A stretch of 60,243 nucleotides of DNA, counting the filler. It is 5 parts of 5 records of this genome, joined end to end, with 100 filler letters (N's around TTAATTAATTAA, not from the genome) between each part and the next. Parts side by side here need not be neighbours in the genome. Positions count along the whole stretch, not along the records: positions 49,897 to 60,243 come from SRR31156797_5017; 4 more parts are not named here. One strand, written 5' to 3'. Below, in pieces: positions 4,750 to 60,243 of this stretch. Each line of letters begins with the position of its first letter. The stretch's first letter is position 1. The translations under genes and the position numbers were made by a program. The notes beneath the pieces are model-generated. The model worked only from the letters and a program-made list of their open reading frames with translations. It ran no database searches and was not told the origin of the DNA.

Positions 4750-6003
4750 CTATTTTCCTATAGCCATTAGATATAAAATATTGTTTTCTGTTTTGAAAAA
4801 CTTTTTACATTTATCATCAAAAAATGCACCAATGCCACTTGAATCAATATTTAAATAAGTTGCTTTTATAGCAACTATATGTGCAAGTAGAGAAGTTAAT
4901 ATATAGTTTTGAGTATAGTTTTCAAAAAGTTTTGAGGTGAAAAAAAGTGTAAAGCAACTATCTCCACCAAGTTTTTGATTAAAGGCAAGTGTTGTTGCAA
5001 AGTCCTTAAAATCGCCATTTTCTAGTAAAGTTACATTTTTGTAAGAACCTTTATCATAGCTTTCTATATTGTTATTGAGCCAGAAAATATCTATTCCATA
5101 TTGCTTTGCAATTTCAAAAATATCTTTTGTGATAAAATCAAAATCCTCTTTTTTGATAGTCTCTTTTTTAAAAGCTCTTATTGATCTTCTATTTTCAATT
5201 GCTTCTTTTAGTTTTTCTTTTTCTAAGGAAACAAGTGGATTTTTAAAATCAAAGTTTTTAAATGATTCACTAAAAACTTTTACTGCAAAGTTTTCAATAA
5301 ATTCATTTCTAATAAAATAATCTGTGGCACAAACACTTAGAAGGTTTTCACGAAGCTCTTTTGGTTTTGTATCTTTTTCATTATCAACTGTTATTGCAGC
5401 TAAAAAGAATTCATTTTTATCAAAGCCAAAACTTTTATTTAGTTTCTCTTTGTCAAAATCAAAACTAAATGAAAAATTGATATCTTCAAGTTGTAAAGCA
5501 GTAAAAATAGAGCCTAACTGATGTCCACAATCTAAAAGCAAATATCTTATTGCTCGATTACTATATTTCCAAGAACTTCTAAAATATACTGTACTAACTA
5601 ATACTATAAACTTTTTTGAGCTATTTTCTTCAAAATAAAACTCAACTCCATCATTACTTAGTTCATGGATTAAAGCAAGTTTGTTTTCAAGTGGTTCATA
5701 ATGATAAATACCAGAAAGAACCCCTTTAACTCCTCTAATCTGGATATAAATCTCACAAGGATAAAGACCTCCCGCACTTGGGTTGATTCTTAGTTTAACT
5801 TCCTCTTTTCCATACTTTTTGATAGTTGTGATTTTTCCAAAATTTTTTACAAAACTTAATTCTTCTATCTCATCAATATCAAATCTTCTAAAAAATTTTG
5901 GGTAGGTTTTGTAATTCCTAGGTTGAGTTCGCCAGTCGATAAACTGGGTCTGCTCAAAGGAATTTTTTTGTGTTAGGTCTGTTTTGTTATGAAGCTGTTG
6001 CAT
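4750..6003 (-). CDS. SagB/ThcOx-like nitroreductase family protein
   Basis: RINPSAGGLYPCEIY, RSSWKY..RA.RY..LDCGH, second domain NRRSIRAF. Confidence 0.85.
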   Translation of the reverse strand: MQQLHNKTDLTQKNSFEQTQFIDWRTQPRNYKTYPKFFRRFDIDEIEELSFVKNFGKITTIKKYGKEEVKLRINPSAGGLYPCEIYIQIRGVKGVLSGIYHYEPLENKLALIHELSNDGVEFYFEENSSKKFIVLVSTVYFRSSWKYSNRAIRYLLLDCGHQLGSIFTALQLEDINFSFSFDFDKEKLNKSFGFDKNEFFLAAITVDNEKDTKPKELRENLLSVCATDYFIRNEFIENFAVKVFSESFKNFDFKNPLVSLEKEKLKEAIENRRSIRAFKKETIKKEDFDFITKDIFEIAKQYGIDIFWLNNNIESYDKGSYKNVTLLENGDFKDFATTLAFNQKLGGDSCFTLFFTSKLFENYTQNYILTSLLAHIVAIKATYLNIDSSGIGAFFDDKCKKFFKTENNILYLMAIGK

Positions 6004-6436
6004 TTTTCAGCATTTTAAATATCTTTGGAGTTACTGCTAAATCAATAGCTTTAAATCCATCAAGGTTTTCCAAAGTAACATCTGCTTTATTTTCTAAAAG
6101 AAGTTGAACAAAATCTTCTTTCCCTGCACTTGCGCAATACATCAGTGAAGTTACGCCATTATCATTTTTAGAGTTTATATCAATTCCCCCATCTATAAGT
6201 GCATAAAAACAATCAAATGATGAAGCAAAACATGCATTCCAAAGTGCAGTGTTGCCATCTACATTTCTAGTATCAAGATTTACACCTTTTCCTATTAACT
6301 CTTTTACAATATCAACTTTTGCTTCTCTTGCCGCTTTCATAACAGCAGAGTTTCCATGTTTTCCTTGTTTGTTAAGGTCATTAATATCGTAATCGTTTTC
6401 TTTAAGCCAAACTCTTGTTTTATCTGTAAAAGACAT
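5987..6436 (-). CDS. Ankyrin repeat protein
   Basis: GNSAVMKAA, GNTALWNAC, GVTSLMYCA repeats. Confidence 0.9.
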   Translation of the reverse strand: MSFTDKTRVWLKENDYDINDLNKQGKHGNSAVMKAAREAKVDIVKELIGKGVNLDTRNVDGNTALWNACFASSFDCFYALIDGGIDINSKNDNGVTSLMYCASAGKEDFVQLLLENKADVTLENLDGFKAIDLAVTPKIFKMLKNATAS

Positions 6437-6437
6437 A

Positions 6438-6959
6438 TTAAACACCCATCCAGTTTTCGTGGGTATGACCCTTTTGTTTGAAGTTAACTACTTCATCAAG
6501 TGAAGATTTAAATTCATTTAAATCAAAACTAGTTTCTATATTTGAAGGGATTTGGATATATTTTATAACTCCCTCTTTATCTATTATAAATATAGATTTT
6601 GCAAGAAGTTCTTCATTTATATTTACTCCAAATTTAAGTGAAAAATCTTTTATATCACTTGAAATAAATCCATCATCAATTGAGTATGCATTTTTTATTT
6701 TTTCTATATTATCGTCACTACTTTTTGTAACAATATAAACTATTGTTTTAGAAGCATATTTTTGAAGAATATTGTGTAGACCATTGTTGTAAGCTTTTAT
6801 ACATGGCAAAGATATCATAACTTGAGTTTTATCTGCCATCATACCAATAACTTTTGTTTCTCCATTTATCATTTTTACTCTAACAGCTGGAGCTTCACTT
6901 TCAACTTTTCTTTCTTTTTTCCCTAATGTGTACTTTTCTTTTTTGTATATTACTTCCAT
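6438..6959 (-). CDS. Thiol peroxidase (Tpx)-like redoxin, degenerate active site
   Basis: Tpx-like N-terminus (EAPAV..KTQVMISLP) and LAKSIFIIDKEGVIKY; lacks PSLDTxxC. Confidence 0.7.
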   Translation of the reverse strand: MEVIYKKEKYTLGKKERKVESEAPAVRVKMINGETKVIGMMADKTQVMISLPCIKAYNNGLHNILQKYASKTIVYIVTKSSDDNIEKIKNAYSIDDGFISSDIKDFSLKFGVNINEELLAKSIFIIDKEGVIKYIQIPSNIETSFDLNEFKSSLDEVVNFKQKGHTHENWMGV

Positions 6960-7337
6960 TTATAGAATTTCCTTATGTGTGATTTGACAATTTGTATCAA
7001 TAATCATTAGTGATTTTTTTAGTTTTTTATTTTCATCATACATATTAAATAGTTTTGCAAAATCTTTGTACTCTGCTGTGATAAGATTGTTTTTTAAGTC
7101 ATATTTTTCAACTATATCTCTACAAGCATCTTTTGAACTTGAAGTTATAATAAAAGAATCAGCTCTATCTTTGAAAAACTCTATTGCATCGTTTAACTGG
7201 TCGTTAAATAAAGTGATATCAGGTAAAGTCATCACAACTTGAACTTTTTCTTTTGGGATTCCTAGAAGTCTAGTTCTTCCACCTATCATCTCTAATGCAA
7301 TTGCTGGGACAATTGGTCTTTGTAGATTAATGCTCAT
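6960..7337 (-). CDS. Shorter Tpx/redoxin-like protein, degenerate
   Basis: KVQVVMTLP, KDFAKLFNM, KSLMIIDTNCQI parallel the neighbouring redoxin. Confidence 0.55.
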   Translation of the reverse strand: MSINLQRPIVPAIALEMIGGRTRLLGIPKEKVQVVMTLPDITLFNDQLNDAIEFFKDRADSFIITSSSKDACRDIVEKYDLKNNLITAEYKDFAKLFNMYDENKKLKKSLMIIDTNCQITHKEIL

Positions 7338-15451: not shown

Positions 15452-15551
15452 NNNNNNNNNNNNNNNNNNNNNNNNNNNNNNNNNNNNNNNNNNNNTTAAT
15501 TAATTAANNNNNNNNNNNNNNNNNNNNNNNNNNNNNNNNNNNNNNNNNNNN
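15452..15551. other. Artificial contig spacer
   Basis: N44-TTAATTAATTAA-N44. Confidence 0.98.
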
Positions 15552-38018: not shown

Positions 38019-38118
38019 NNNNNNNNNNNNNNNNNNNNNNNNNNNNNNNNNNNNNNNNNNNNTTAATTAATTAANNNNNNNNNNNNNNNNNNNNNNNNNN
38101 NNNNNNNNNNNNNNNNNN
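38019..38118. other. Artificial contig spacer
   Basis: N-run with TTAATTAATTAA. Confidence 0.98.
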
Positions 38119-43180: not shown

Positions 43181-43280
43181 NNNNNNNNNNNNNNNNNNNN
43201 NNNNNNNNNNNNNNNNNNNNNNNNTTAATTAATTAANNNNNNNNNNNNNNNNNNNNNNNNNNNNNNNNNNNNNNNNNNNN
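43181..43280. other. Artificial contig spacer
   Basis: N-run with TTAATTAATTAA. Confidence 0.98.
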
Positions 43281-49796: not shown

Positions 49797-49896
49797 NNNN
49801 NNNNNNNNNNNNNNNNNNNNNNNNNNNNNNNNNNNNNNNNTTAATTAATTAANNNNNNNNNNNNNNNNNNNNNNNNNNNNNNNNNNNNNNNNNNNN
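49797..49896. other. Artificial contig spacer
   Basis: N-run with TTAATTAATTAA. Confidence 0.98.
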
Positions 49897-49897
49897 T

Positions 49898-50656
49898 AAA
49901 GGGGATACGCTCAAGGGGCTTGCCACAATTGGAAACGGAGAGGATCCCTTAAGCAAACGGATTAACGAGACGATTGCGACGGGCCTCAATAAAGGCGTCG
50001 AGCTTGCTTATGAAAATTATCCCGAAGAAACAAAGCAGACTTTGGAACTGCTCGACAAGCTAGGCAGCAAAGTCGATGCGACCTTGACCTGGGTCGATGA
50101 GACATCGGGAAAAAGAATAAGCAAGACATGGAATTCTCTGGACGAAGATACGAAGGGCTTGCTCAAATTGGGCGGCAAAGCTTTGGGCATGACAGTTTCA
50201 ATCTCAAGTGCAGGCGTTGGTACGTTAGCGCATTTGAAGAAGGTCCAAGCTGTTGCAAAGGCTGTTGACAAGGTTGTACCGGATAGTGTCAAGAACTCGA
50301 AGGTGGTTAAGGCGCTAGCTGACGTTGGCAATGATTTAAAGGTCCCGTGGAATTCTTGGGCTGGTTACATAAAACAAGTCGAGAATGGTAGAGAGTCTGC
50401 TCAAGTTGGGAATAGGCTGTATTCTCGCCATGCTGTTGATCGCATGCAGCCTAGTGGATTAGGTGCCCCTGCCGGGACTATTGGGGCCGGCAGGAATATT
50501 TCACCAAACATTGTTGAATATGTGATTGGAAATGGGACCAAATCTACAAAAATAGTGAACGGCGTTACTAGAACAATTCATTCGGCAGGAGATGTAAAGG
50601 TTGTCACTGAAGACCATGGTAGAATAGTTATTACTGTATTAAGGGGGAGGCGGTAA
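49898..50656 (+). CDS. C-terminal part of a CdiA-like polymorphic toxin, probable BECR/DUF4258-like RNase tip
   Basis: frame open from contig edge; ends YSRHAVDRMQP..GRNISP..VE..I..G......VVTE..GRIVITV; followed by a small acidic ORF. Confidence 0.72.
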   Translation, partial: KGDTLKGLATIGNGEDPLSKRINETIATGLNKGVELAYENYPEETKQTLELLDKLGSKVDATLTWVDETSGKRISKTWNSLDEDTKGLLKLGGKALGMTVSISSAGVGTLAHLKKVQAVAKAVDKVVPDSVKNSKVVKALADVGNDLKVPWNSWAGYIKQVENGRESAQVGNRLYSRHAVDRMQPSGLGAPAGTIGAGRNISPNIVEYVIGNGTKSTKIVNGVTRTIHSAGDVKVVTEDHGRIVITVLRGRR

Positions 50657-50662
50657 CTAATC

Positions 50663-50959
50663 ATGCAAGAAGATGTTTTAAAAGAGCAGATAGAAAGAAG
50701 TTGCAACCGACATTTGAGAGGCGATCTTTCAATTGAAGAATTTCAATGGGAATTGAGGAATATTGAAAACTCTATTACTTCAATAGAATACAATGAGATA
50801 AGAACGTATCTTGCAGAAACTGAAGGAGAATTAGAGTTGATATTATATACGGAAGAACCATTCATTCAGACGAGGTTAAGCTATAGGCTGGCAATGAATG
50901 TGGTGAAATGGCTGAACCAACGCAAAATACAGGAAAAACAGATAGATCATACCAAGTAA
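50663..50959 (+). CDS. Putative cognate immunity protein (CdiI-like)
   Basis: 98 aa, acidic, low GC, starts 6 nt after the toxin stop, RBS GGAGG. Confidence 0.65.
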   Translation: MQEDVLKEQIERSCNRHLRGDLSIEEFQWELRNIENSITSIEYNEIRTYLAETEGELELILYTEEPFIQTRLSYRLAMNVVKWLNQRKIQEKQIDHTK

Positions 50960-50980
50960 GCCCCACCAATAATAGATAAT

Positions 50981-51005
50981 AGGCCCGGCTCAGTCCGGGC
51001 CTTTC
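50981..51005 (+). terminator. Terminator after the immunity gene
   Basis: AGGCCCGG-CTCAGT-CCGGGCCT-TT. Confidence 0.75.
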
Positions 51006-51021
51006 TCTTGCTCTTTGACAT

Positions 51022-51117
51022 AGCCTGACCATCAACACCGACGTTGGCACTGCCATCAACGGCGGCGACCTTGGCGAGAATTTGATCGCGAATCTGCACG
51101 GGGCGACGGTGTCCAGT
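51022..51117 (+). pseudogene. Relic cdiA fragment (DUF637-like)
   Basis: GC-rich start-less patch SLTINTDVGTAINGGDLGENLIANL. Confidence 0.55.
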
Positions 51118-51570
51118 CAAAGTCAAAGGTAGTAAGCGCTGAGAATGGGAAAATTATTTTAACGTATTTTTGCAGTGACCTTCGAGATCCGTTGGTTGTT
51201 GACGGTAACAACACTGAAAGCGGCTTCTTTTTCATGAGCCGGGTCGATCAATCCTTCGCTAAAGTCTATATGGCTTGACGTGCTCCTAATAAGGATTGGA
51301 TGGACTTTTTTTTAAAGAGTACTTTTGGAGCTATTGAGGTGCTCAATCCAGGGAATTCAACAAACTTGTTTCAACTTTTTTGAAACGGAAGAGTAGGGCT
51401 GCATGAGTTGTGAGTTTAGTCCAATAACTTCAAATTTGTAGTTCGCTTTCAACTCGTTGTTTTGTGGCCCAATAAGGTCGCCCTTCTTTTGAGTTGCTAT
51501 GAGTCGAAAAGTAAATTATAGTTTCTAAAAAAGGATAAGAAATAAATTTTAATTACTCTGGAGAAAGTCG

Positions 51571-51918
51571 ATGAGTCGATCAGCAGCAGCAGGCAAAGCC
51601 ATCTCCCCGGCAGCAGTTCGTACTCTTGAGAAGGTTGGTGCCAACATCAAGAAAGCTCGGCTGCGCCGGAACATTACCCAAAAAGACCTGGCTCGGCGAG
51701 CCTCGACCAACCATGTTACTTTGGGCAAGCTTGAAAGAGGCGAACCCACTGTCGGGTTAGGTGTGCTTGTTCAGGTCCTTGAAATCCTTGGGCTGCTCTC
51801 AAACTTAGAATTGTTGGCCAATCCCAACGATGACCAACTCGGCGTAGCTCTTGAGGAAAAAAACCAGCGCCAGCGTGCCGGCAGCAAACGCAATGCAGAT
51901 GAAGCCTTGGACTTTTAA
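51571..51918 (+). CDS. XRE/HTH antitoxin (HipB-like)
   Basis: GANIKKARLRRNITQKDLARRA...LGKLERGEP; directly upstream of hipA. Confidence 0.85.
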   Translation: MSRSAAAGKAISPAAVRTLEKVGANIKKARLRRNITQKDLARRASTNHVTLGKLERGEPTVGLGVLVQVLEILGLLSNLELLANPNDDQLGVALEEKNQRQRAGSKRNADEALDF

Positions 51919-51927
51919 GGATAGCTT

Positions 51928-53193
51928 ATGGCTCAAGATATTACATTCGTATTTATTTCGATAGAAGGACATTTTGTGCCAGCCGGACGACTTCAAATGT
52001 CGCACTCTGGAGAGGCCGTTCATTTGTCCGAGTTTTCGTATGGTCGCAGATATCTTGAACGTAAAAACGCCATCCCCATTGACCCTAACGAACTTCCTCT
52101 CACACTCCGAACATATTCCACCATAGGACAATTTCGTGCATTTCAGGATGCTAGTCCGGATGGATGGGGGCGGCATCTCCTTGATCTGGCAGCCGAAGAA
52201 TATGGTGTAAAGCCTACCGAATTTGATTATTTAACTGTTCTTGATCAGGAAAATAGGATTGGGGCCTTGGCATTTGGTCCAGACCCCAGAAAGCGGCCAG
52301 AGCCAACCACCCCTCCATGGCGGCCTGATATTGTCCATGGGGATACTCTTGATCTTGGCGAGATGATTCGTGTTGCAGATCTTGTTCTTAGCCATGAAAA
52401 ACTTGCCCCGGAACACAGACGATTCCTTGTCCGGGGATCTTCCGCCGGAGGGGCTCAACCCAAGGCTGTTGTCGAATATGAAGGCCGACAATGGATTGCT
52501 AAATTTTCACGAGAATTTGAATATTGGCCGACGTGTCGCATTGAGTTGGCCGCCATGAACTTGGCAGCTTTGTGCTCGATACGTATTCCCGAATGTAAAG
52601 TCATTGAAGTAAGTGGTCGTGACGTCTTTCTTGTCGAGAGGTTTGACCGTAGTCGTGATCATATTCGTCACCACTTTTTGTCTGCGATGACACTCGTTGG
52701 TGCTCAGGACATGACCGAAGGGGCCTATGGAGACATTGCACGAGCTATTCGACGATATGGGGTTGCTGATTATGTCAAAGATGATTTGGTGGAACTGTTT
52801 CGCCGAATGGTCTTCAATATCCTTTGCAATAACAACGATGACCACCTCAAGAACCACGGCTTTCTGTATGACCCCACGAGTAAGATGTGGAGGTTGTCGC
52901 CCGCCTACGACATCGTTCCCCAACCCCGTGAAAATACTGATGGCCATGGCTTTTTGACTCTCGAAGTTGGTTCGAAAGGTCGATTAGCCACGCTTGAGAA
53001 TGCATTGTCTCGATGTGAAGAATTTGGACTCAACAAAGATGAAGCAACTAAGATAGCTTCTGAGGTTAAGAATATAGTCTCTCACCGGTGGGTCTCCGAG
53101 AATCGGAAAGCCCTTGTGCCGGAAGAAAAGATTCGGCTCGTAGAAGAAGTTTACCGTGAGGCAGAGGCCAGCTCGGTTCTTTGGACCTCTTAG
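51928..53193 (+). CDS. hipA: HipA family Ser/Thr kinase toxin
   Basis: PDGWGR, RIGALAF, GSSAGGAQPKA, VERFDR, NNDDHLKNHGF, LSPAYD. Confidence 0.92.
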   Translation: MAQDITFVFISIEGHFVPAGRLQMSHSGEAVHLSEFSYGRRYLERKNAIPIDPNELPLTLRTYSTIGQFRAFQDASPDGWGRHLLDLAAEEYGVKPTEFDYLTVLDQENRIGALAFGPDPRKRPEPTTPPWRPDIVHGDTLDLGEMIRVADLVLSHEKLAPEHRRFLVRGSSAGGAQPKAVVEYEGRQWIAKFSREFEYWPTCRIELAAMNLAALCSIRIPECKVIEVSGRDVFLVERFDRSRDHIRHHFLSAMTLVGAQDMTEGAYGDIARAIRRYGVADYVKDDLVELFRRMVFNILCNNNDDHLKNHGFLYDPTSKMWRLSPAYDIVPQPRENTDGHGFLTLEVGSKGRLATLENALSRCEEFGLNKDEATKIASEVKNIVSHRWVSENRKALVPEEKIRLVEEVYREAEASSVLWTS

Positions 53194-53370
53194 CAGCGAA
53201 TTTAAGAGTGTCTCGTCGAGATGAGTTAATCAGGAAGTCGGACGAGAGGAATTGAGAAATATCTGTGAGCCACCTCTGAGACGTTGCTTTCGAGGGTGAG
53301 TAATTTTTTCTTGCCATAAGAAAACCGCTCCTGGTTGTTTCCATTTTCAAGAATCCCAGAAGCGGCTTTA

Positions 53371-53416
53371 CTTAACAACTTTATTACTCACTTAAAAAAT
53401 TTATTACTCACCCACA
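53371..53416 (-). mobile_element. Tn7-like transposon end, right-end type (two contiguous TnsB-type sites)
   Basis: reverse complement TGTGGG-TGAGTAATAAATTTTTTAAG-TGAGTAATAAAGTTGTTAAG. Confidence 0.75.
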
Positions 53417-53420
53417 CAGG

Positions 53421-53566
53421 TGTGGGCGAGTAATAAAGTTCTTTTGTCGAAAGTCCAGAAGTTCTTGTTTCTCGGTGACGAAAACGAAGTCTGAGTAATA
53501 AAGTTCTTAAGTGGGAGGGGTGACAACTCGAAAAGGGTACAAGTTTTGAGTAATAAAGTTTTTAAG
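53421..53566 (+). mobile_element. Tn7-like transposon end, left-end type (three spaced TnsB-type sites)
   Basis: TGTGGGCGAGTAATAAAGTTCTT at 53421; TGAGTAATAAAGTT.TTAAG at 53492 and 53547; compare Tn7 terminus TGTGGGCGGACAATAAAGTCTTAAA. Confidence 0.8.
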
Positions 53567-53924
53567 TGCCAATTGGCGAGGCGGGGGTAGCCGATGAGTG
53601 TTTTGTTTGAATTTTGGGAACACGGTATTTAATTGGGCTAGATTTTTCCTTTCGCCCTGTATCTCTACTCATGTCCTTGGTAGATACTAAATTGGGTAAA
53701 TGAAGCCGCTTTCTAGTGCTTGTATTATTAAGCAAGCCAGGAGTGACTTATGCAAAACGAAGAAAAGCCTTTCTCGATTAGCCGTTCGAAATTGTTATTT
53801 TTGAATTGAGCATTCCGATAATCTGAATAGCCTCAAAAAAATTAATGTAATTATCTATACGCTTGACGCCGATAATTATTTAATGCAGGAATTTCTCACT
53901 TGTTGAGCTTCCGGGGTGGAACTT

Positions 53925-54005
53925 CAGCAAACCATAAAGCCAAATTCGTCGTGAGGCGAAGACGGAAAGCCACGGGTCTTAAGAAGATAGCCGGGTTGCT
54001 AGGGA
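53925..54005 (+). ncRNA. c-di-GMP-I (GEMM) riboswitch
   Basis: GCCAAA-TTCGTC-GTGA-GGCGAA-GACGGAAAGCCACGGGTCT..AGATAGCCGGGTTGC, in the 5' UTR of cdiB. Confidence 0.88.
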
Positions 54006-54113
54006 TCTTACTCTATTCTTACCCTTCAGTCCTCTTTTCTCACCTTTGGTTTTCTCATAATTATTTTGAGTTTAGTGCAATCCGTTGTTCGGGTGCTCAA
54101 AGGTGAGATGTTT

Positions 54114-55841
54114 ATGATTTGGGATAAAGCTAGTGCTGCAGCTTTGTTTTTTTGTGCTTTGTTATTTGTTTTTCCGGGGAGTGCCTTGGCCCAGTCCGTT
54201 CAAGACGCTGGGCGCGTGCAAGAGCGTATCATTCAGCGAGAGGAAGAGCGTCGTCGAATACTACAGGAACAGCTCGAACAACAAACTAAACAACCCCCTT
54301 CAGGTGTTGAATTACAGAAAGAGCCTCCGGTTGAACCCATAGACGGAGCGACCTGTTTCGATGTTCGTCGAATCAATCTAACCGGCGTGACGTTGATCCC
54401 TGTCAGCATCCTTGATGATTTGACCAGCGAATACACTGGCCGTTGCCTGACCTTGGCGGACATCAACGAGTTGCTTAAGGCCATCACCAACGAATATGTT
54501 GCCCGCGGCTATGTGACCTCCCGGGCCTATTTGCCGGAGCAAGACATCTCGAGTGGTGTCCTTGAACTGAAAGTCATTGAGGGGCGCATTGAAGACATCA
54601 CGCTGAATGACGGTATTGGCAAGCAAAATCAACTTTTAGGTCCTTTTATGGGGCTTGTAGGCGATCCTCTTAACCTTCGTGACCTTGAACAAGGGCTGGA
54701 TCAATTCAACCGTTTGGCCTCAAATAACGCTACGATGAAATTGGTACCTGGCAACAAGCCAGGGCAGAGCATCGTTGCTATTACAAATGATCCTGACACG
54801 AGATGGCGCATATCATTGGGCTGGGATGATTCCGGCCAGGATTCCACTGGCACAAATCAGTATTCACCACAATTCGAGAAGGATAACTTTATCGGATTCA
54901 GCGATATGTTGTCTCTGAATTATTCGGCCACACCTCTTCCTTGGGAGTCTTCCAGGCGAGCAAAGAACAGCCAAAGTCTTTCTGCTTATTGGTCTCTGCC
55001 ATTGGGCTATTGGACGGTTAGCTTATTCGCTAGTAAATTCAATTATAATACGATCCTTTCGGGCATGACTCAGGAGTTCTCCAATAAGGGCGAGACCTGT
55101 TTTCAATCACTGGGGATCGACCGTGTAATCCATCGTGACGCCGACAGCAAAACGTCCTTGGGAGTCGGTGTGGAACATCGCAAGGTGGAAAGTTGGATTG
55201 AGGGTGTTCGATTGGTGGCTAGCAGCTATGAAACCACCGACGTCGGCCTTAAGGCCAGCCATACACGCCGTTTGCTTGGCGGATCGTTGAGCATGGGGCT
55301 CGAATATCATTGGGGTGCAGATTTTTTAGGCTCCTCAGAGCCTCTCGATGGTGAGGGGGTACCCACTCCCCAATATACAAAGTGGGAAGGGAACCTGAAC
55401 TATTACCATCCTATTTCTTTTGGTGGTCAATCCCTGATGTGGAGCTCGATTCTTCGTGCTCAGTATAGCCACGATTCCCTTTATAGTGCTGAGCGTATGT
55501 CGATCGGTAGTCGTTATACGGTTCGTGGATTTTCGATCGATAGCCTGAGTGGAGATAGCGGGGGATATATTCGTAACGAACTCTCCTGGCGGTTGCCTTT
55601 TCAGAACTACTACACCGATAAAATCTCGGCTTGCGAACTGTTCGCGGGATATGACTATGGGATGATCCTTCGCGACGAGAATGACCCTTATGAGCGAGGC
55701 TGTTTGCAGGGAATTGCCTTGGGCCTGCGTACTTTTGGCAAGTTGAGCGCCAGTGCGACTATTGCCAAAGCCATAGCCGCACCTGATTTTCTCGAAAAAG
55801 AAAACTTTGAAATCTATAGCGCTGTGACTGTGACATTCTAG
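54114..55841 (+). CDS. cdiB: TpsB/CdiB (ShlB/FhaC/HecB) outer-membrane transporter
   Basis: signal peptide, POTRA (ITNEY..RGYVTSRA), LNLRDLEQGLDQ, SIGSRYTVRGF, terminal Phe. Confidence 0.93.
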   Translation: MIWDKASAAALFFCALLFVFPGSALAQSVQDAGRVQERIIQREEERRRILQEQLEQQTKQPPSGVELQKEPPVEPIDGATCFDVRRINLTGVTLIPVSILDDLTSEYTGRCLTLADINELLKAITNEYVARGYVTSRAYLPEQDISSGVLELKVIEGRIEDITLNDGIGKQNQLLGPFMGLVGDPLNLRDLEQGLDQFNRLASNNATMKLVPGNKPGQSIVAITNDPDTRWRISLGWDDSGQDSTGTNQYSPQFEKDNFIGFSDMLSLNYSATPLPWESSRRAKNSQSLSAYWSLPLGYWTVSLFASKFNYNTILSGMTQEFSNKGETCFQSLGIDRVIHRDADSKTSLGVGVEHRKVESWIEGVRLVASSYETTDVGLKASHTRRLLGGSLSMGLEYHWGADFLGSSEPLDGEGVPTPQYTKWEGNLNYYHPISFGGQSLMWSSILRAQYSHDSLYSAERMSIGSRYTVRGFSIDSLSGDSGGYIRNELSWRLPFQNYYTDKISACELFAGYDYGMILRDENDPYERGCLQGIALGLRTFGKLSASATIAKAIAAPDFLEKENFEIYSAVTVTF

Positions 55842-55850
55842 GAGTATGAG

Positions 55851-58800
55851 ATGAAAGCCAATAGAATTTCCAACCAATTGCTTAGTGTTATACTGTCATG
55901 TCTTATCGTTTTTCAGCCCGGCTTTATCGCCATGGCTGGAGACCGTCCTACAGTGGTCGATCCGACCGCCCCTGACGGAAAGAAGCCGATAATTGACCAA
56001 GCTGCAAATGGAGTTCCTATTGAGCTGATCGCGACTCCGGGCAGCGGTGGGGTTTCTCACAATCTGTTCACCGATTTCAACGTGAATAAAATTGGTTTGA
56101 TTATTAACAACAGTCAATCAATGGGGCAATCACAGCTGGGTGGCATCATCGCTGGGAATCCCAATCTCAAAGGGGGAGAGGCGCGTCTTATCTTGAACGA
56201 GGTCACTGGCGCTAATCGTTCTCATCTTGAAGGGTATACAGAGTTACACGGTGGCAAAGCTGATTATATATTGGCAAACCCAAATGGTATTACCGTCAAC
56301 GGTGGTGGATTCATCAATTTCCCTCAAGTAACTCTGACCACGGGCAAATCCTGCTTCGGTACGGGGGGACTAGAAGGAATTGATGTTCGCTCTGGTGATA
56401 TTTTGGTCGAGGGCGCAGGTGTCAATGCTACCAATATAGACGCTTTTACACTGCTTGCGCGTGCGACCCAAATCAATGCTGCTATCCACGCCAAGATTCT
56501 GACTATCGCAGTCGGGCAGAATGCATATAATCCCACCGATGGTTCCATAACTGCCTTGGCGCCAGACGCCACACTCACTCCTTCTGTTGCCATTGATTCC
56601 AGTGCGCTGGGAGGTATGTACGCTAGACGTATCGTGCTCCAAGGTACCGAGGCCGGGGTCGGGGTTAATCTTAAAGGCATCATCCAGGCCGTGGACTCAT
56701 TTGAGTTGACGGCAGACGGGCAAATTCGTCTAAAAAATAAAACGACTGCCGGAACCGATATTCAAATTCGTTCTCAGAACGGTGGTGTAGAAATTAATGA
56801 TACAGTTTATGCGGGGGGAGCTGCTCTTGTAAGCGCCGCGGATGCTCTCAACATACGTCAGGGTGCGTCTGGTGATACCTCCATGGTCGGGGCTGCCGGA
56901 CATCTCACGTTGTCTGCTGCTTCCGTTAACGCTGTAGATGGGAATATTACTGCGGGGCTACAGACGGATGGAAGTGTATCTGGTGGGACCTTGTCTGTTA
57001 TGGCAGCCAACTCGTTGACCACAAAAGATTCGAAACTCGTTTCCGGTGGTAAATTGTCTATAGCTTCGTCTGATATTTCTATTGATGGTGGCAGCGTTGC
57101 AGCCGTAGAGAAATTGAGTATTCAAGGATCTAATTCAGGTGATGTCGTTATGACCGGTGCGGCTGAATTGTCCTCGTTGAATGCCATGGATGTTGAAGCA
57201 CGTTCCTGGACTGCGGCCGATGGTTTGCTGAAAGCAAATGGTTTGTACTTTTCGTTGATTGGCGATCTTAACCTAGGAAGTGCTGTTCTGAATTCCACCG
57301 GGACGCTGACCTTGGAAGCGAACTCGCTGGCGACCGGCGCAGGTGCTTCCATTACGAGCTTCGCAGATATGGTCTTGGCCTTGGATGCGCTCCAAAACAA
57401 TGGTGGTCTGATTTACGCTGGCGACGAACTGAATTTGAACGTCCGCAGGCTTGATAACACCTCCGCAGGCTATATCGTCGGGGTCAATGGTGTGGACGTC
57501 AGCGGACAAACCGAAGGTTCCCGTGCCGCGCTGATCAGCAACAACCAGTCGGTGATCGAAAGCCTCGGCGGCTCCGTGAATATCGCGGCGGAGAGTCTTG
57601 AAAATATTTCTGGTGCTGCGACCATCACGACACAAGATGCTGGCTGGATTTACTGGAGCATGGGCTTCCCGGCGGATTTTCCCGGCTTCAATGCCGACGG
57701 CACAAGGAATGTCTTCAGTGAAGCTGGTGCGCGATTGTACCAAAACAAAGGAGGGGTAAACGCACACCTTCAGTATATCCTGGAAACATACGGCCTGCCC
57801 TGGCACCGTCCGTACGATGGCCGCACCTTGCAGGAATGGATTCACACCACCGAAGAGATCATTGAAAACGCTGGCGTGACAGCCGAGATACTGTCTGCCG
57901 AGAATATGGTCATTGATGCTGACACAATTCTCAATGACCATGGCATCATCTCCTCCGGCGCCGACCTGACAATCACCGCCAATTCGCTGACCAACCGGGG
58001 TGTCGAACTGAGCCGCAACCTCGACTTTTACCGCAACTTCCACCAGGTGCACGACAGCGGAAGCCGTAGTTACGGCCAGGTTCAGCAGCATTTTGAACTC
58101 TCGCAAGTCACCAGCTCCGATCCGGCTGTTGTCGCGGCGGCAGGAACACTGACCGTCAATGTGCCGGGACATGTCAACAACGAAAGCTTCAAGGAAGGCG
58201 AACAGTACACGGGCAAGTTTGCGGGGAACGCTGCATACTCAGATCTGGAAGTCACAGGGCCGCTCAAGGATCCCGATACGGGTGAACCCGTCAATACGAT
58301 CACCGTCTCCCTCCCGACAGGCGTGGGATCCCTGTATGTCGTGAACAAGAACCCGGAACAGACATACCTCATCGAGACCAACCCGGCGATGACCAATGTC
58401 GGTAACTTCTATGGCTCACAATACTTCTTTGATGAAGTCGGGGTAAATGTTGCCGATCTGAACAACCAGATTTTAGGCGATGCCTTTTTTGAAACCAATA
58501 TGGTTCGTAAGCAGATTCTCAAGGCGACGGGAAAACGCTACCTGAACCCGACCTATACCAGTGACGCCGATCAATTCCGCCGACTCATGGACAATGCGGC
58601 CCAGGCCAAGACCGAGTTGGGGCTTGAAATCGGCGTGGCCCTGAGCGCGGAGCAATTGGCGGGTTTGACCGAGGATATCGTCTGGTACGAAACCCGCGAG
58701 GTCATGGGCAAGAAAGTCCTTGTGCCCGTGGTCTACCTAGGGTCCGTGTCCCAGGCCAATCTGGACCTCACACGAGGCGCCATGCTCACGGGCGATTCCG

Positions 58801-60243
58801 TGAACATCAAGACCGCCGAACTGGACAACAGCGGTGGCATTGTCGGGCAGAATGTGACCGTTGAAGCCGACAATGTCAGAAACAGTGGCGGCGACATGGC
58901 CGGACAGACCCTGAATGTCACGGCCGGCAAGGACATTATAAACAGTAGCGGTTCGATCAGAGGCAAGGACGTCTCTCTCTCAGTCGGTCGCAATGTCGCC
59001 ATTGAGACAAAGACCGAACAGCGCCGGGACGGGGCAACCGATTCCCATTCCTACGTGCATCAGACCGCTGACGTGACCGCCTCCGGCGATCTGAATATTC
59101 GTTCGGGAGCCGACACCAAGGTCCGGGCTGCCAAACTGTCGGCTGACGGCACGGCCTCCATTGACGCGGATGGCGACGTGACCATCGGCACCAAGGCCGT
59201 TACCGAACACATTGAAGCCATGTATTACAAGGCCGACCAAGAAAGCCACATGGGCTCCAAGGTCAAGGCAGGGAGCCTGGACATCACTTCCGGCAAAGAT
59301 GCAACCGTGGCTGGCAGCTCTCTCGACGCAACCGGCGACGCCTCCATCAGTGCGGCGGGCAACGTCGCCATCATGGGCGTAACCAACTATTCCGAGTCGG
59401 AACATAAGCGTTCCACCTCCGGCGGCATGTTCGGAGGCGGAGGCACCAAGCGGGTTCACGCGGAAAAGAGCCGGGTCACCCGGTCCTCGGTCACAGCTGA
59501 CGGTCATGTAACCATCAACGCAGGCACTGATACGACGGATGCCGGGAAAGGTAATCTGGTCGTGATGGGAAGCGGAATCGAGGCTGGCGGCAACGCGACC
59601 CTGAACGCAGAGGGAGAAAGCATTGTCGGCTCCATGAAAGAGCGCACGTATCGGGACGATTCCGGCTCCTCCTCAGGACTGTTCTCATCCTCCAAGTCCA
59701 AGGAAACTCTTGATGAAAACAGCTTGGTGGGCAGTTCCGTCACAGCCGGACAGGATGCCCGGCTGACCGCTGGCTCCGGCGTGGCGCTGGACTCCAGCGC
59801 CGTCAAGGCGGGCCGGGCCGTAAAACTGACAGCCAAGACTGGCGATGTGATCATTTCCAGCGGCCAGGACACCTACGCCCACCATGTTGAAAAGAGCAAG
59901 TCCGGCTTCATGGGCACCGGCTCCATGGAGCTGCGGGACAAGCAGTCGGTAACCACCGTCCGCAGCGAAATCGAAGCTGGCAACAAGGTCGCCATCGAAG
60001 CCAAGGAAGACGTGACACTCCAGGCCGCACGCATCACTTCCGGCGACACCACCGAGATCACGGCCAAGGACGGCCAGGTCGCCATGCTCGTGACCAAAGA
60101 CAGCGTGTACGAACGCAATATCAAGTCCAAGACCAGTTTTTTCTCTTGGTCCTCCAAAGACGAAGGAACGCACGACGAAACGGTCCGTCATACCGAAATC
60201 AACGCCGCAGGCGGTCTGACCATCACCACCGCCGAGGGCATCC
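55851..60243 (+). CDS. cdiA: TpsA/CdiA filamentous haemagglutinin-like exoprotein (runs off window end; absent from ORF track)
   Basis: signal peptide, TPS domain (GVSHNLFTDFNV, NPNL, ILNEV, ANPNGI), GGMYA, YP-like region (YLIETNP..LGDAFFE..DIVWY..VLVPVVYL), FHA-2 repeats. Confidence 0.92.
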   Translation, partial: MKANRISNQLLSVILSCLIVFQPGFIAMAGDRPTVVDPTAPDGKKPIIDQAANGVPIELIATPGSGGVSHNLFTDFNVNKIGLIINNSQSMGQSQLGGIIAGNPNLKGGEARLILNEVTGANRSHLEGYTELHGGKADYILANPNGITVNGGGFINFPQVTLTTGKSCFGTGGLEGIDVRSGDILVEGAGVNATNIDAFTLLARATQINAAIHAKILTIAVGQNAYNPTDGSITALAPDATLTPSVAIDSSALGGMYARRIVLQGTEAGVGVNLKGIIQAVDSFELTADGQIRLKNKTTAGTDIQIRSQNGGVEINDTVYAGGAALVSAADALNIRQGASGDTSMVGAAGHLTLSAASVNAVDGNITAGLQTDGSVSGGTLSVMAANSLTTKDSKLVSGGKLSIASSDISIDGGSVAAVEKLSIQGSNSGDVVMTGAAELSSLNAMDVEARSWTAADGLLKANGLYFSLIGDLNLGSAVLNSTGTLTLEANSLATGAGASITSFADMVLALDALQNNGGLIYAGDELNLNVRRLDNTSAGYIVGVNGVDVSGQTEGSRAALISNNQSVIESLGGSVNIAAESLENISGAATITTQDAGWIYWSMGFPADFPGFNADGTRNVFSEAGARLYQNKGGVNAHLQYILETYGLPWHRPYDGRTLQEWIHTTEEIIENAGVTAEILSAENMVIDADTILNDHGIISSGADLTITANSLTNRGVELSRNLDFYRNFHQVHDSGSRSYGQVQQHFELSQVTSSDPAVVAAAGTLTVNVPGHVNNESFKEGEQYTGKFAGNAAYSDLEVTGPLKDPDTGEPVNTITVSLPTGVGSLYVVNKNPEQTYLIETNPAMTNVGNFYGSQYFFDEVGVNVADLNNQILGDAFFETNMVRKQILKATGKRYLNPTYTSDADQFRRLMDNAAQAKTELGLEIGVALSAEQLAGLTEDIVWYETREVMGKKVLVPVVYLGSVSQANLDLTRGAMLTGDSVNIKTAELDNSGGIVGQNVTVEADNVRNSGGDMAGQTLNVTAGKDIINSSGSIRGKDVSLSVGRNVAIETKTEQRRDGATDSHSYVHQTADVTASGDLNIRSGADTKVRAAKLSADGTASIDADGDVTIGTKAVTEHIEAMYYKADQESHMGSKVKAGSLDITSGKDATVAGSSLDATGDASISAAGNVAIMGVTNYSESEHKRSTSGGMFGGGGTKRVHAEKSRVTRSSVTADGHVTINAGTDTTDAGKGNLVVMGSGIEAGGNATLNAEGESIVGSMKERTYRDDSGSSSGLFSSSKSKETLDENSLVGSSVTAGQDARLTAGSGVALDSSAVKAGRAVKLTAKTGDVIISSGQDTYAHHVEKSKSGFMGTGSMELRDKQSVTTVRSEIEAGNKVAIEAKEDVTLQAARITSGDTTEITAKDGQVAMLVTKDSVYERNIKSKTSFFSWSSKDEGTHDETVRHTEINAAGGLTITTAEGI

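Follow-up and report, generated by a model that had tools for sequence, protein, structure and literature searches.

The junction at 53371-53566 is probably the boundary between two Tn7-like units that lie head to tail, in an array of the type found beside a glmS-type attachment gene. The reading is supported by a cluster of motifs beyond chance expectation, by the occurrence of the same terminus on autonomous elements, by a tnsA stub and by the spacing of the left-end sites. It is further supported by 17 abutted junctions, some of them in chromosomes, and by the decay of both units, as in other arrays. We infer from the relatives that the contig lies in such a glmS-side array, and in what order the events took place.

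Ends, repeats and spacer at the junction

The window, by which we mean the whole stretch of DNA that was analysed (60,243 nucleotides, filler included), consists of five contigs joined by N44-TTAATTAATTAA-N44 linkers at 15452-15551, 38019-38118, 43181-43280 and 49797-49896. The junction lies on the last contig (49897-60243, 10,347 bp); self-comparison of this contig, and its comparison with the two preceding contigs, found no sequence in common. The G+C content is 31% in contigs 1 and 2, which carry rpoN, nitrogenase-like, ammonium transporter and anmK genes, and ~45-60% in contigs 3-5, and the record probably mixes at least two organisms. No tRNA gene was found in the window. The 10.3-kb junction contig holds no outer ends, no glmS-like gene, no replication gene and, beyond a tnsA stub, no tns genes. 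The features at the junction are as follows.

53262..53350, minus strand: tnsA stub, approximately the first 28 codons, aligning with the TnsA N-termini of loci L008, L019 and L035 and with the remnant in genome G001
53371..53416, minus strand: right end, terminus ...CCCACA at 53416 (TGTGGGTG in reverse), with two contiguous 20-bp TnsB-type sites
53417..53420: spacer CAGG, the 4 bp that separate the termini
53421..53566, plus strand: left end, terminus TGTGGGCG at 53421, with three spaced sites at offsets 6, 71 and 126

Read directly from the letters, two inward TGTGGG termini enclose CAGG (...TTATTACTCACCCACA(53416) CAGG (53421)TGTGGGCGAGTAATAAAG...). The 4-bp length of the spacer presumes that the termini are TGT/ACA; the inverted repeat extends one base further on each side, so that its arms measure 24 nt and stand 2 nt apart. 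A repeat search placed five copies of a 20-bp site within 53371-53566, two on the minus strand, which are contiguous at a spacing of 20 nt (53371-53390 and 53391-53410), and three on the plus strand, at 53427, 53492 and 53547 (spacings of 65 and 55). The initial annotation had described two facing ends, a 4-bp spacer and five 20-bp repeats at these positions, and all of them are present in the numbers that it gave.

The cluster is confined to the junction. A mismatch scan found no further copy of the 20-mer elsewhere in the window at up to four mismatches, and the 13-mer core GAGTAATAAAKTT has five matches in the window, all at the junction, versus 0.02 expected (none of 100 shuffles reached five). 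A looser 10-mer with one mismatch allowed was uninformative, with 13 matches versus 7.9 expected. On the minus strand the abutted inverted termini (53400-53437) make a terminator-like structure, a hairpin of 17 pairs with a T run after it; across the junction, terminators (one versus 0.8 expected from shuffles) and promoter-like sites (one versus 1.1 expected) were not above chance.

Both sides of the junction carry the conserved ~8-bp TGT...ACA terminus, and passages of PMC11014353 state TGT/ACA terminal pairs for Tn7-type elements. The window also shows the combination of contiguous right-end repeats and spaced left-end repeats, at which TnsB binding is putative. Identification of the packed side as a right end follows the stub (tblastn E 6e-4 on a 520-nt target, with homology lost after ~28 codons) and the homology from 53278 to 53416, which is 77-82% identical to the right ends of L020, L029 and L011. 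Ends beside tnsA in relatives have sites at 6/26/46, and the right end of genome G329 and of organism B has a third site, as a 20-nt insertion at 53376. The left-end offsets of 6/71-72/126-127 recur in L020, L023 and G005:C186, at the ends opposite the tnsA side. The tnsA stub at the packed side and the 6/71/126 spacing at the other thus bear out the earlier proposal of a right-end/left-end junction.

Tns genes stand beside the right end in relatives that have the same ends (L008, L019, G384, G126 and G212); in the window that place is taken by the ~28-codon tnsA stub. As this stub is the only trace of transposition genes, and a Pfam scan of 32 ORFs of the window matched no tns family, the window's copies are non-autonomous derivatives.

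Autonomous relatives, attachment genes and abutted ends

The terminus pattern was found at 23 loci in other genomes (exact scan, one genome per species). L008 has genes for TnsA, TnsB (Mu-transpos_C), TnsC and TnsD/TniQ, as assigned by Pfam, after a terminus with three contiguous sites. At L019 and in G002:C72, 24 bp separate the right end from the end of a canonical glmS (853-855 bits), and tnsA, tnsB and tnsC come next. In the family of G001 (itself a Pseudodesulfovibrio sp.), a tnsA-tnsB-tnsC-tnsD set begins ~90-120 bp inside the right end in three of the five genomes examined, and the remaining two lack tns genes within 9 kb. The attachment gene of this family encodes a glmS-like protein of ~940 aa. 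This protein has SIS and glutamine amidotransferase domains and scores below the NCBIfam glmS cut-off (194-218 bits versus 381-418). In nine cases (G001, L011, G329, G384, G302, G126, G178, G321 and G292) the terminus lies 5-7 bp from the stop codon of the glmS-like gene. The same family of termini and sites therefore bounds tnsA, tnsB, tnsC, tnsD elements beside a glmS or glmS-like gene, and the earlier assignment of the two sides to Tn7-like ends holds. In G126:C1 (L150 4645-7384), tnsD of an otherwise complete tnsABCD element matches as two pieces ~1.2 kb apart and is probably interrupted.

Abutted ends are common among these relatives. Across 20 regions, seven have abutted termini and seven have a terminus beside the 3′ end of a glmS-like gene (one region has both), whilst seven show neither by the pattern used. 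With the window included, 17 junctions of facing termini were read by eye from printed sequence, with the termini taken as TGT/ACA; their spacers are distributed as follows.

4 bp, 3 junctions: the window, G002:C75, G179
5 bp, 11 junctions: G001, G005:C186, G006, G002:C72, one in G002:C75, one in L023, G197, two in G346, G292, G269
6 bp, 1 junction: G329
7 bp, 1 junction: L023
8 bp, 1 junction: G159

Several of the junctions lie on single contigs of 3.6-4.3 Mb and are, therefore, chromosomal. The 5-bp repeats of the relatives are GGATT, CTTGC, ATAGT and TCTTC; the window spacer has 4 bp, and the outer flanks of its units lie off the contig. GGATT, the spacer in G001, is also the 5-bp stretch from the stop region of the glmS-like gene to the first right end; CTTGC, the spacer in G002:C72, is identical to the flank nearest the gene; and in G346 ATAGT occurs on both sides of one element. 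These patterns are as repeated insertion at one target predicts. Most array units are reduced, and tnsA stubs are present in G001, G005, G006 and L023.

The initial annotation had offered an end-joined circle or an atypical tandem insertion in explanation of the 4-bp spacer. Because abutted ends recur and 4 bp is found in three of the 17 junctions, the spacer needs no circle; it is a minor variant and not the mark of one. The tandem half of that proposal gains from the frequency of abutted ends, the use of the spacer length as a sign of a circle falls, and the circle itself is kept in play by a single element in G329, described below.

Three further arrangements were seen in these regions. L023 contains, at 5566-7079, a 1.5-kb mini element with another site family (GACAAT/GACAGT type) between two ends of the present family, with TCTTC flanks. 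At G002:C75:50740-50812 (L033/L034), two elements of 30-33 bp, each consisting of a left and a right terminus only and having CTTGC flanks, are lined up ahead of a full left end; they have the appearance of Tn7-like units reduced by extreme deletion. Two left ends in G005:C186, at 10485 and 64448 (L038, L040), share an outside flank in which a G+C-rich hairpin is followed by GTTATCAAATGAGGT, which hints at either a duplicated unit plus flank or a second preferred target.

Cargo of the contig and origin of the junction

The remainder of the contig is occupied by cargo on both sides of the junction.

49898..50656, plus strand: 3′ part of a cdiA-type gene (252 aa), open at the contig start and ending in a polymorphic toxin (CdiA-CT) domain
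50663..50959, plus strand: 98-aa ORF directly 3′ of the toxin domain, putative CdiI immunity protein
50971..51114: remnant, identified by sequence matches, of the conserved pre-toxin boundary found ahead of orphan cdiA-CT modules
51571..51918, plus strand: hipB-like HTH antitoxin (Pfam HTH_3, E 3.1e-9)
51928..53193, plus strand: hipA toxin kinase (Pfam HipA_C, E 9.7e-52), the protein 97% identical to the G329 copy
53930..54004, plus strand: c-di-GMP-I riboswitch upstream of cdiB (Rfam RF03167, 64.5 bits versus a gathering score of 59, E 5.7e-13)
54066..55841, plus strand: cdiB, two-partner-secretion transporter of the ShlB/FhaC type (Pfam ShlB E 7e-90, POTRA_2, POTRA_3)
55851..60242, plus strand: 5′ part of cdiA (1464 aa), open at the end of the contig and window (Pfam TPS domain E 3.8e-47, haemagglutinin repeats)

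The last ~100 residues of the CdiA-CT fragment are 52-66% identical to the C-termini of CdiA/DUF637, VENN and RHS proteins (28 hits), and none of these 28 longer proteins is near-identical to it. Pfam matched no family in the ORF at 49898..50656 or in the 98-aa ORF, which is named a putative CdiI from its position. The boundary remnant shares 77-90% identity with three stretches that separate orphan modules in G001 and with cdi loci in six other genomes of the 401 searched, and it translates to a GGDLGxNL-like motif, as in the CdiA of G329. A DNA search of the 401 genomes with 49897-51200 matched only this ~80-160-nt boundary repeat, in seven genomes, and the toxin module in none. In run X1, the probable source run, another contig matches 51034-51114, at a depth of 307 versus 123 for the junction contig. 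A metagenome scan with HipA returned 72 loci at 41-63% identity, with the end motif at none of the 72. The riboswitch precedes cdiB in G001 (82%) and in G329 too; its core matches many family genomes, and most short matches fall at query 2435-2500.

Our preferred model is one in which CAGG separates a resident unit from an incomer. The right end on its left would belong to a unit that lacks transposition genes and carries hipBA with the CdiA-CT/immunity module, and the left end on its right would belong to a unit carrying the c-di-GMP riboswitch and the cdiB-cdiA contact-dependent inhibition operon. A TnsD-type protein of an autonomous relative would bind the 3′ end of the glmS-like gene, and TnsABC would insert the element a few bases downstream, its right end facing the gene. 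If another element later inserted there, it would land between the gene and the resident element, and the product would be a resident right end, a duplicated target and an incoming left end, with the spacer as the remainder of the duplication. In that case, we infer, the cdi unit would have the glmS-like gene on its right, on the minus strand, and would be the later arrival of the two. A spacer of 4 bp might arise if the 5-bp target was ACAGG, the flank seen in G329, and included the last A of the resident terminus; alternatively, the stagger or its repair may have varied by one base. With an overlapping target of this kind, ACAGGTG would be expected at the next right end. The same one-base offset, applied to the 4-bp spacer of G002:C75, misfits the next junction if contigs C75 and C72 adjoin.

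G329 complicates the reading of two separate units. Among the 401 family genomes searched, G329 matches both sides of the junction on the same strand, 53416-55900 at 99% and 51500-53411 at 98%, with the two matches 10 kb apart and in the order opposite to that of the window. They belong to a single element of 12,547 bp (241143-253689), in which a left end is followed by the riboswitch, cdiB, cdiA (1935 aa), two ORFs, hipBA, the tnsA stub and a three-site right end. The 6-bp direct repeat ACAGGT flanks the element on both sides (G329:C1:241137-241142 and 253690-253695; L126/L127), another Tn7-like terminus adjoins it on the left, and the stop codon of the glmS-like gene lies 7 bp to its right. 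Contigs of organism B, from an independent run, have the same flanks; G329 and organism B, which may be the same strain, were counted as one observation. The 6-bp repeat is consistent with one-base variation, and a 5-bp duplication with one added base fits equally. The CdiB protein of the window is 99% identical to the G329 copy, and the 5′ part of cdiA is colinear with the G329 CdiA up to ~residue 1466 of 1935, where the right end of the contig falls; the left end of the contig falls at about the start of the variable toxin region.

This element cuts both ways. In both G329 and organism B, 7 bp separate its right end from a glmS-like stop codon and its left end is abutted by another Tn7-like end, which supports the array. 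On the other hand, G329 has both sides of our junction as one element, and two unrelated neighbours are not the simplest history. The contig is short, and its two ends lie in cdiA-type frames, which a single gene could accommodate if ~0.4-0.7 kb were missing between them. Among the contigs listed for the probable source run, none joins the right end to a glmS-like gene or the left end to another flank; 21 loose ends and 37 pieces lie outside those listed. The spacer, too, is 4 bp and the canonical length is 5. Lastly, target immunity, as described in passages of PMC11014353, should disfavour a second insertion beside near-identical TnsB sites.

The alternative suggested by G329, which we regard as somewhat unlikely, is that both sides are the two ends of one ~11-12.5-kb element without tns genes, joined head to tail as an excised circle or a tandem multimer, so that the contig is a circular permutation of it. 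G329 and organism B hold exactly such an element singly, 98-99% identical to both sides, and the contig ends, at cdiA residue 1464 and at the start of CdiA-CT, are colinear with one gene of the G329 type save for the short gap. One contig of the probable source run crosses the junction unbroken, with no competing flank among the contigs listed; in a multimer, chromosomal flanks too rare to break the assembly would stay hidden. Circularized Tn7 species, moreover, are reportedly made in vitro by TnsA plus TnsB (Biery et al., in 2000). However, the contig has no transposase gene, and thus no circle-making transposase encoded by the element, and with neither a replication gene nor a tns gene a circle as the sole form could not persist. 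We know of no circular intermediate in Tn7-type transposition in vivo. Passages of PMC11014353 describe this transposition as cut and paste. A plain chromosomal dimer, for its part, should break a k-mer assembly at the termini, and the assembly is unbroken. Junctions of the same kind, 4-bp spacers included, are present in the chromosomes of relatives, and joined flanks of the G329 type would give ACAGGT, not CAGG. The fuller version of this alternative, in which the element was mainly head to tail in the sample (as an excised circle or an amplified tandem multimer), proteins were supplied in trans and the 4 bp are a remnant of the ACAGGT flanks, strikes us as decidedly doubtful.

It is very improbable that the assembly wrongly joined two transposon ends by way of their inverted-repeat termini. 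The assembly is fragmented and mixed, with contigs of 31% and ~50% G+C, and the termini are indeed inverted repeats, but their identical arms at the junction reach at most 17 nt with one mismatch, below usual assembly words. An independent contig set of the probable source run, furthermore, gives the same 10,347-bp contig, with no differences from 49897-60243, and a similar junction, longer by one letter, is crossed by a second contig there, of lower depth (record 5). Comparable junctions are present in many other assemblies.

The position of five ordered 20-bp repeats upstream of an operon might suggest an operator or iteron array, serving a regulator or a replication protein. This reading is barely credible, because in relatives the same repeats with TGT termini bound tnsABCD elements at a fixed place beside glmS-type genes, in the window a tnsA stub adjoins them, and a blastn search of a plasmid collection with 53250-53700 gave no match. 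The repeats thus did not prove to belong to an operator or iteron family, and the relatives do encode a TnsB-family transposase, the two points on which the initial annotation had staked its identification.

Relation to known mobile elements

As a boundary between two tandem units, the junction fits known Tn7 biology as a non-autonomous member, and is mostly ordinary. Like Tn7 and the Tn7-like elements that target glmS (TnsABC plus TnsD), it has TGT...ACA termini starting TGTGGG and several ~20-bp sites, which adjoin one another at the right end and are spread over ~150 bp at the left; tnsA lies by the right end and, in relatives, this end is turned toward a glmS-type gene, a few bases downstream of its 3′ end. 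Unlike those elements, the copies in the window have no transposition genes save the tnsA stub, and are, therefore, movable only with proteins supplied in trans. The attachment gene of the G001 family also differs, being the ~940-aa glmS-like gene, with the terminus 5-7 bp from its stop codon versus 24 bp in the Methylobacter loci.

Tn7 itself, according to passages of PMC11014353, moves by cut and paste with a 5-bp duplication, inserts precisely at a set distance from glmS and confers target immunity. The legend of Figure 2 in the same paper places active and inactive Tn7-like elements together in the glmS attachment site, and other passages recognize insertions in a shared attachment site by their shared target duplications. 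The window and its relatives resemble such sites with multiple or decayed Tn7-like elements (attTn7 islands; Tn6022/AbaR) in that a site is shared and some elements are active and some inactive, as passages of PMC11014353 describe. They are unlike them in that the ends here directly abut, with 4-8 bp between them, in that near-identical site families stand on both sides despite the expected target immunity, and in that most units are reduced, down to the 30-33-bp end pairs of G002:C75. The forming of genomic islands by Tn7 was reportedly treated by Parks and Peters in 2007.

Circle junctions are known from copy-out insertion sequences of the IS3/IS30 type. These, and the circularized Tn7 made in vitro by TnsA plus TnsB, likewise place a right end and a left end a few bp apart, but in the window there is no transposase, no second chromosomal form was seen and no junction promoter was found beyond chance. 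Were the circle or multimer true, it would be an in-vivo form that we did not find described for Tn7-type elements in the literature searched; as it stands, a near-identical element is single in one genome and permuted in the window.

The departures of the spacer from 5 bp (4 to 8 bp in six of the 17 junctions) bear on how exact TnsD-directed insertion is, and on target immunity. Array units that have lost their tns genes keep intact ends, and most units could for that reason still move in trans.

The cargo resembles cdiBAI loci with orphan toxin modules, having a ShlB/FhaC transporter, a TPS exoprotein whose C-terminal toxin is variable, a small ORF downstream and what remains of a further module; the orphans in G001 include DUF637/PT-VENN modules and Imm63. 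Unlike those loci, the one in the window rides on a Tn7-like element just inside its left end, with a c-di-GMP-I riboswitch before it. The main text of the Tn7 cargo survey PMC8649781 contains no occurrence of 'contact-dependent' or 'hemagglutinin'. One unit with a complete contact-dependent inhibition system behind a c-di-GMP riboswitch, together with hipBA, represents interbacterial weapons as mobile cargo.

Ends of this family were also seen elsewhere in run X1, where the 52.6-kb contig of record 3, at a depth of 275 versus 123 for the junction contig, carries a right end 90% like that of the window (aligned to 53357-53416). The sequence that follows this end is AT-rich and unrelated, and a Tn7-like element with ends of the same family seems to be present in a second organism of that sample.
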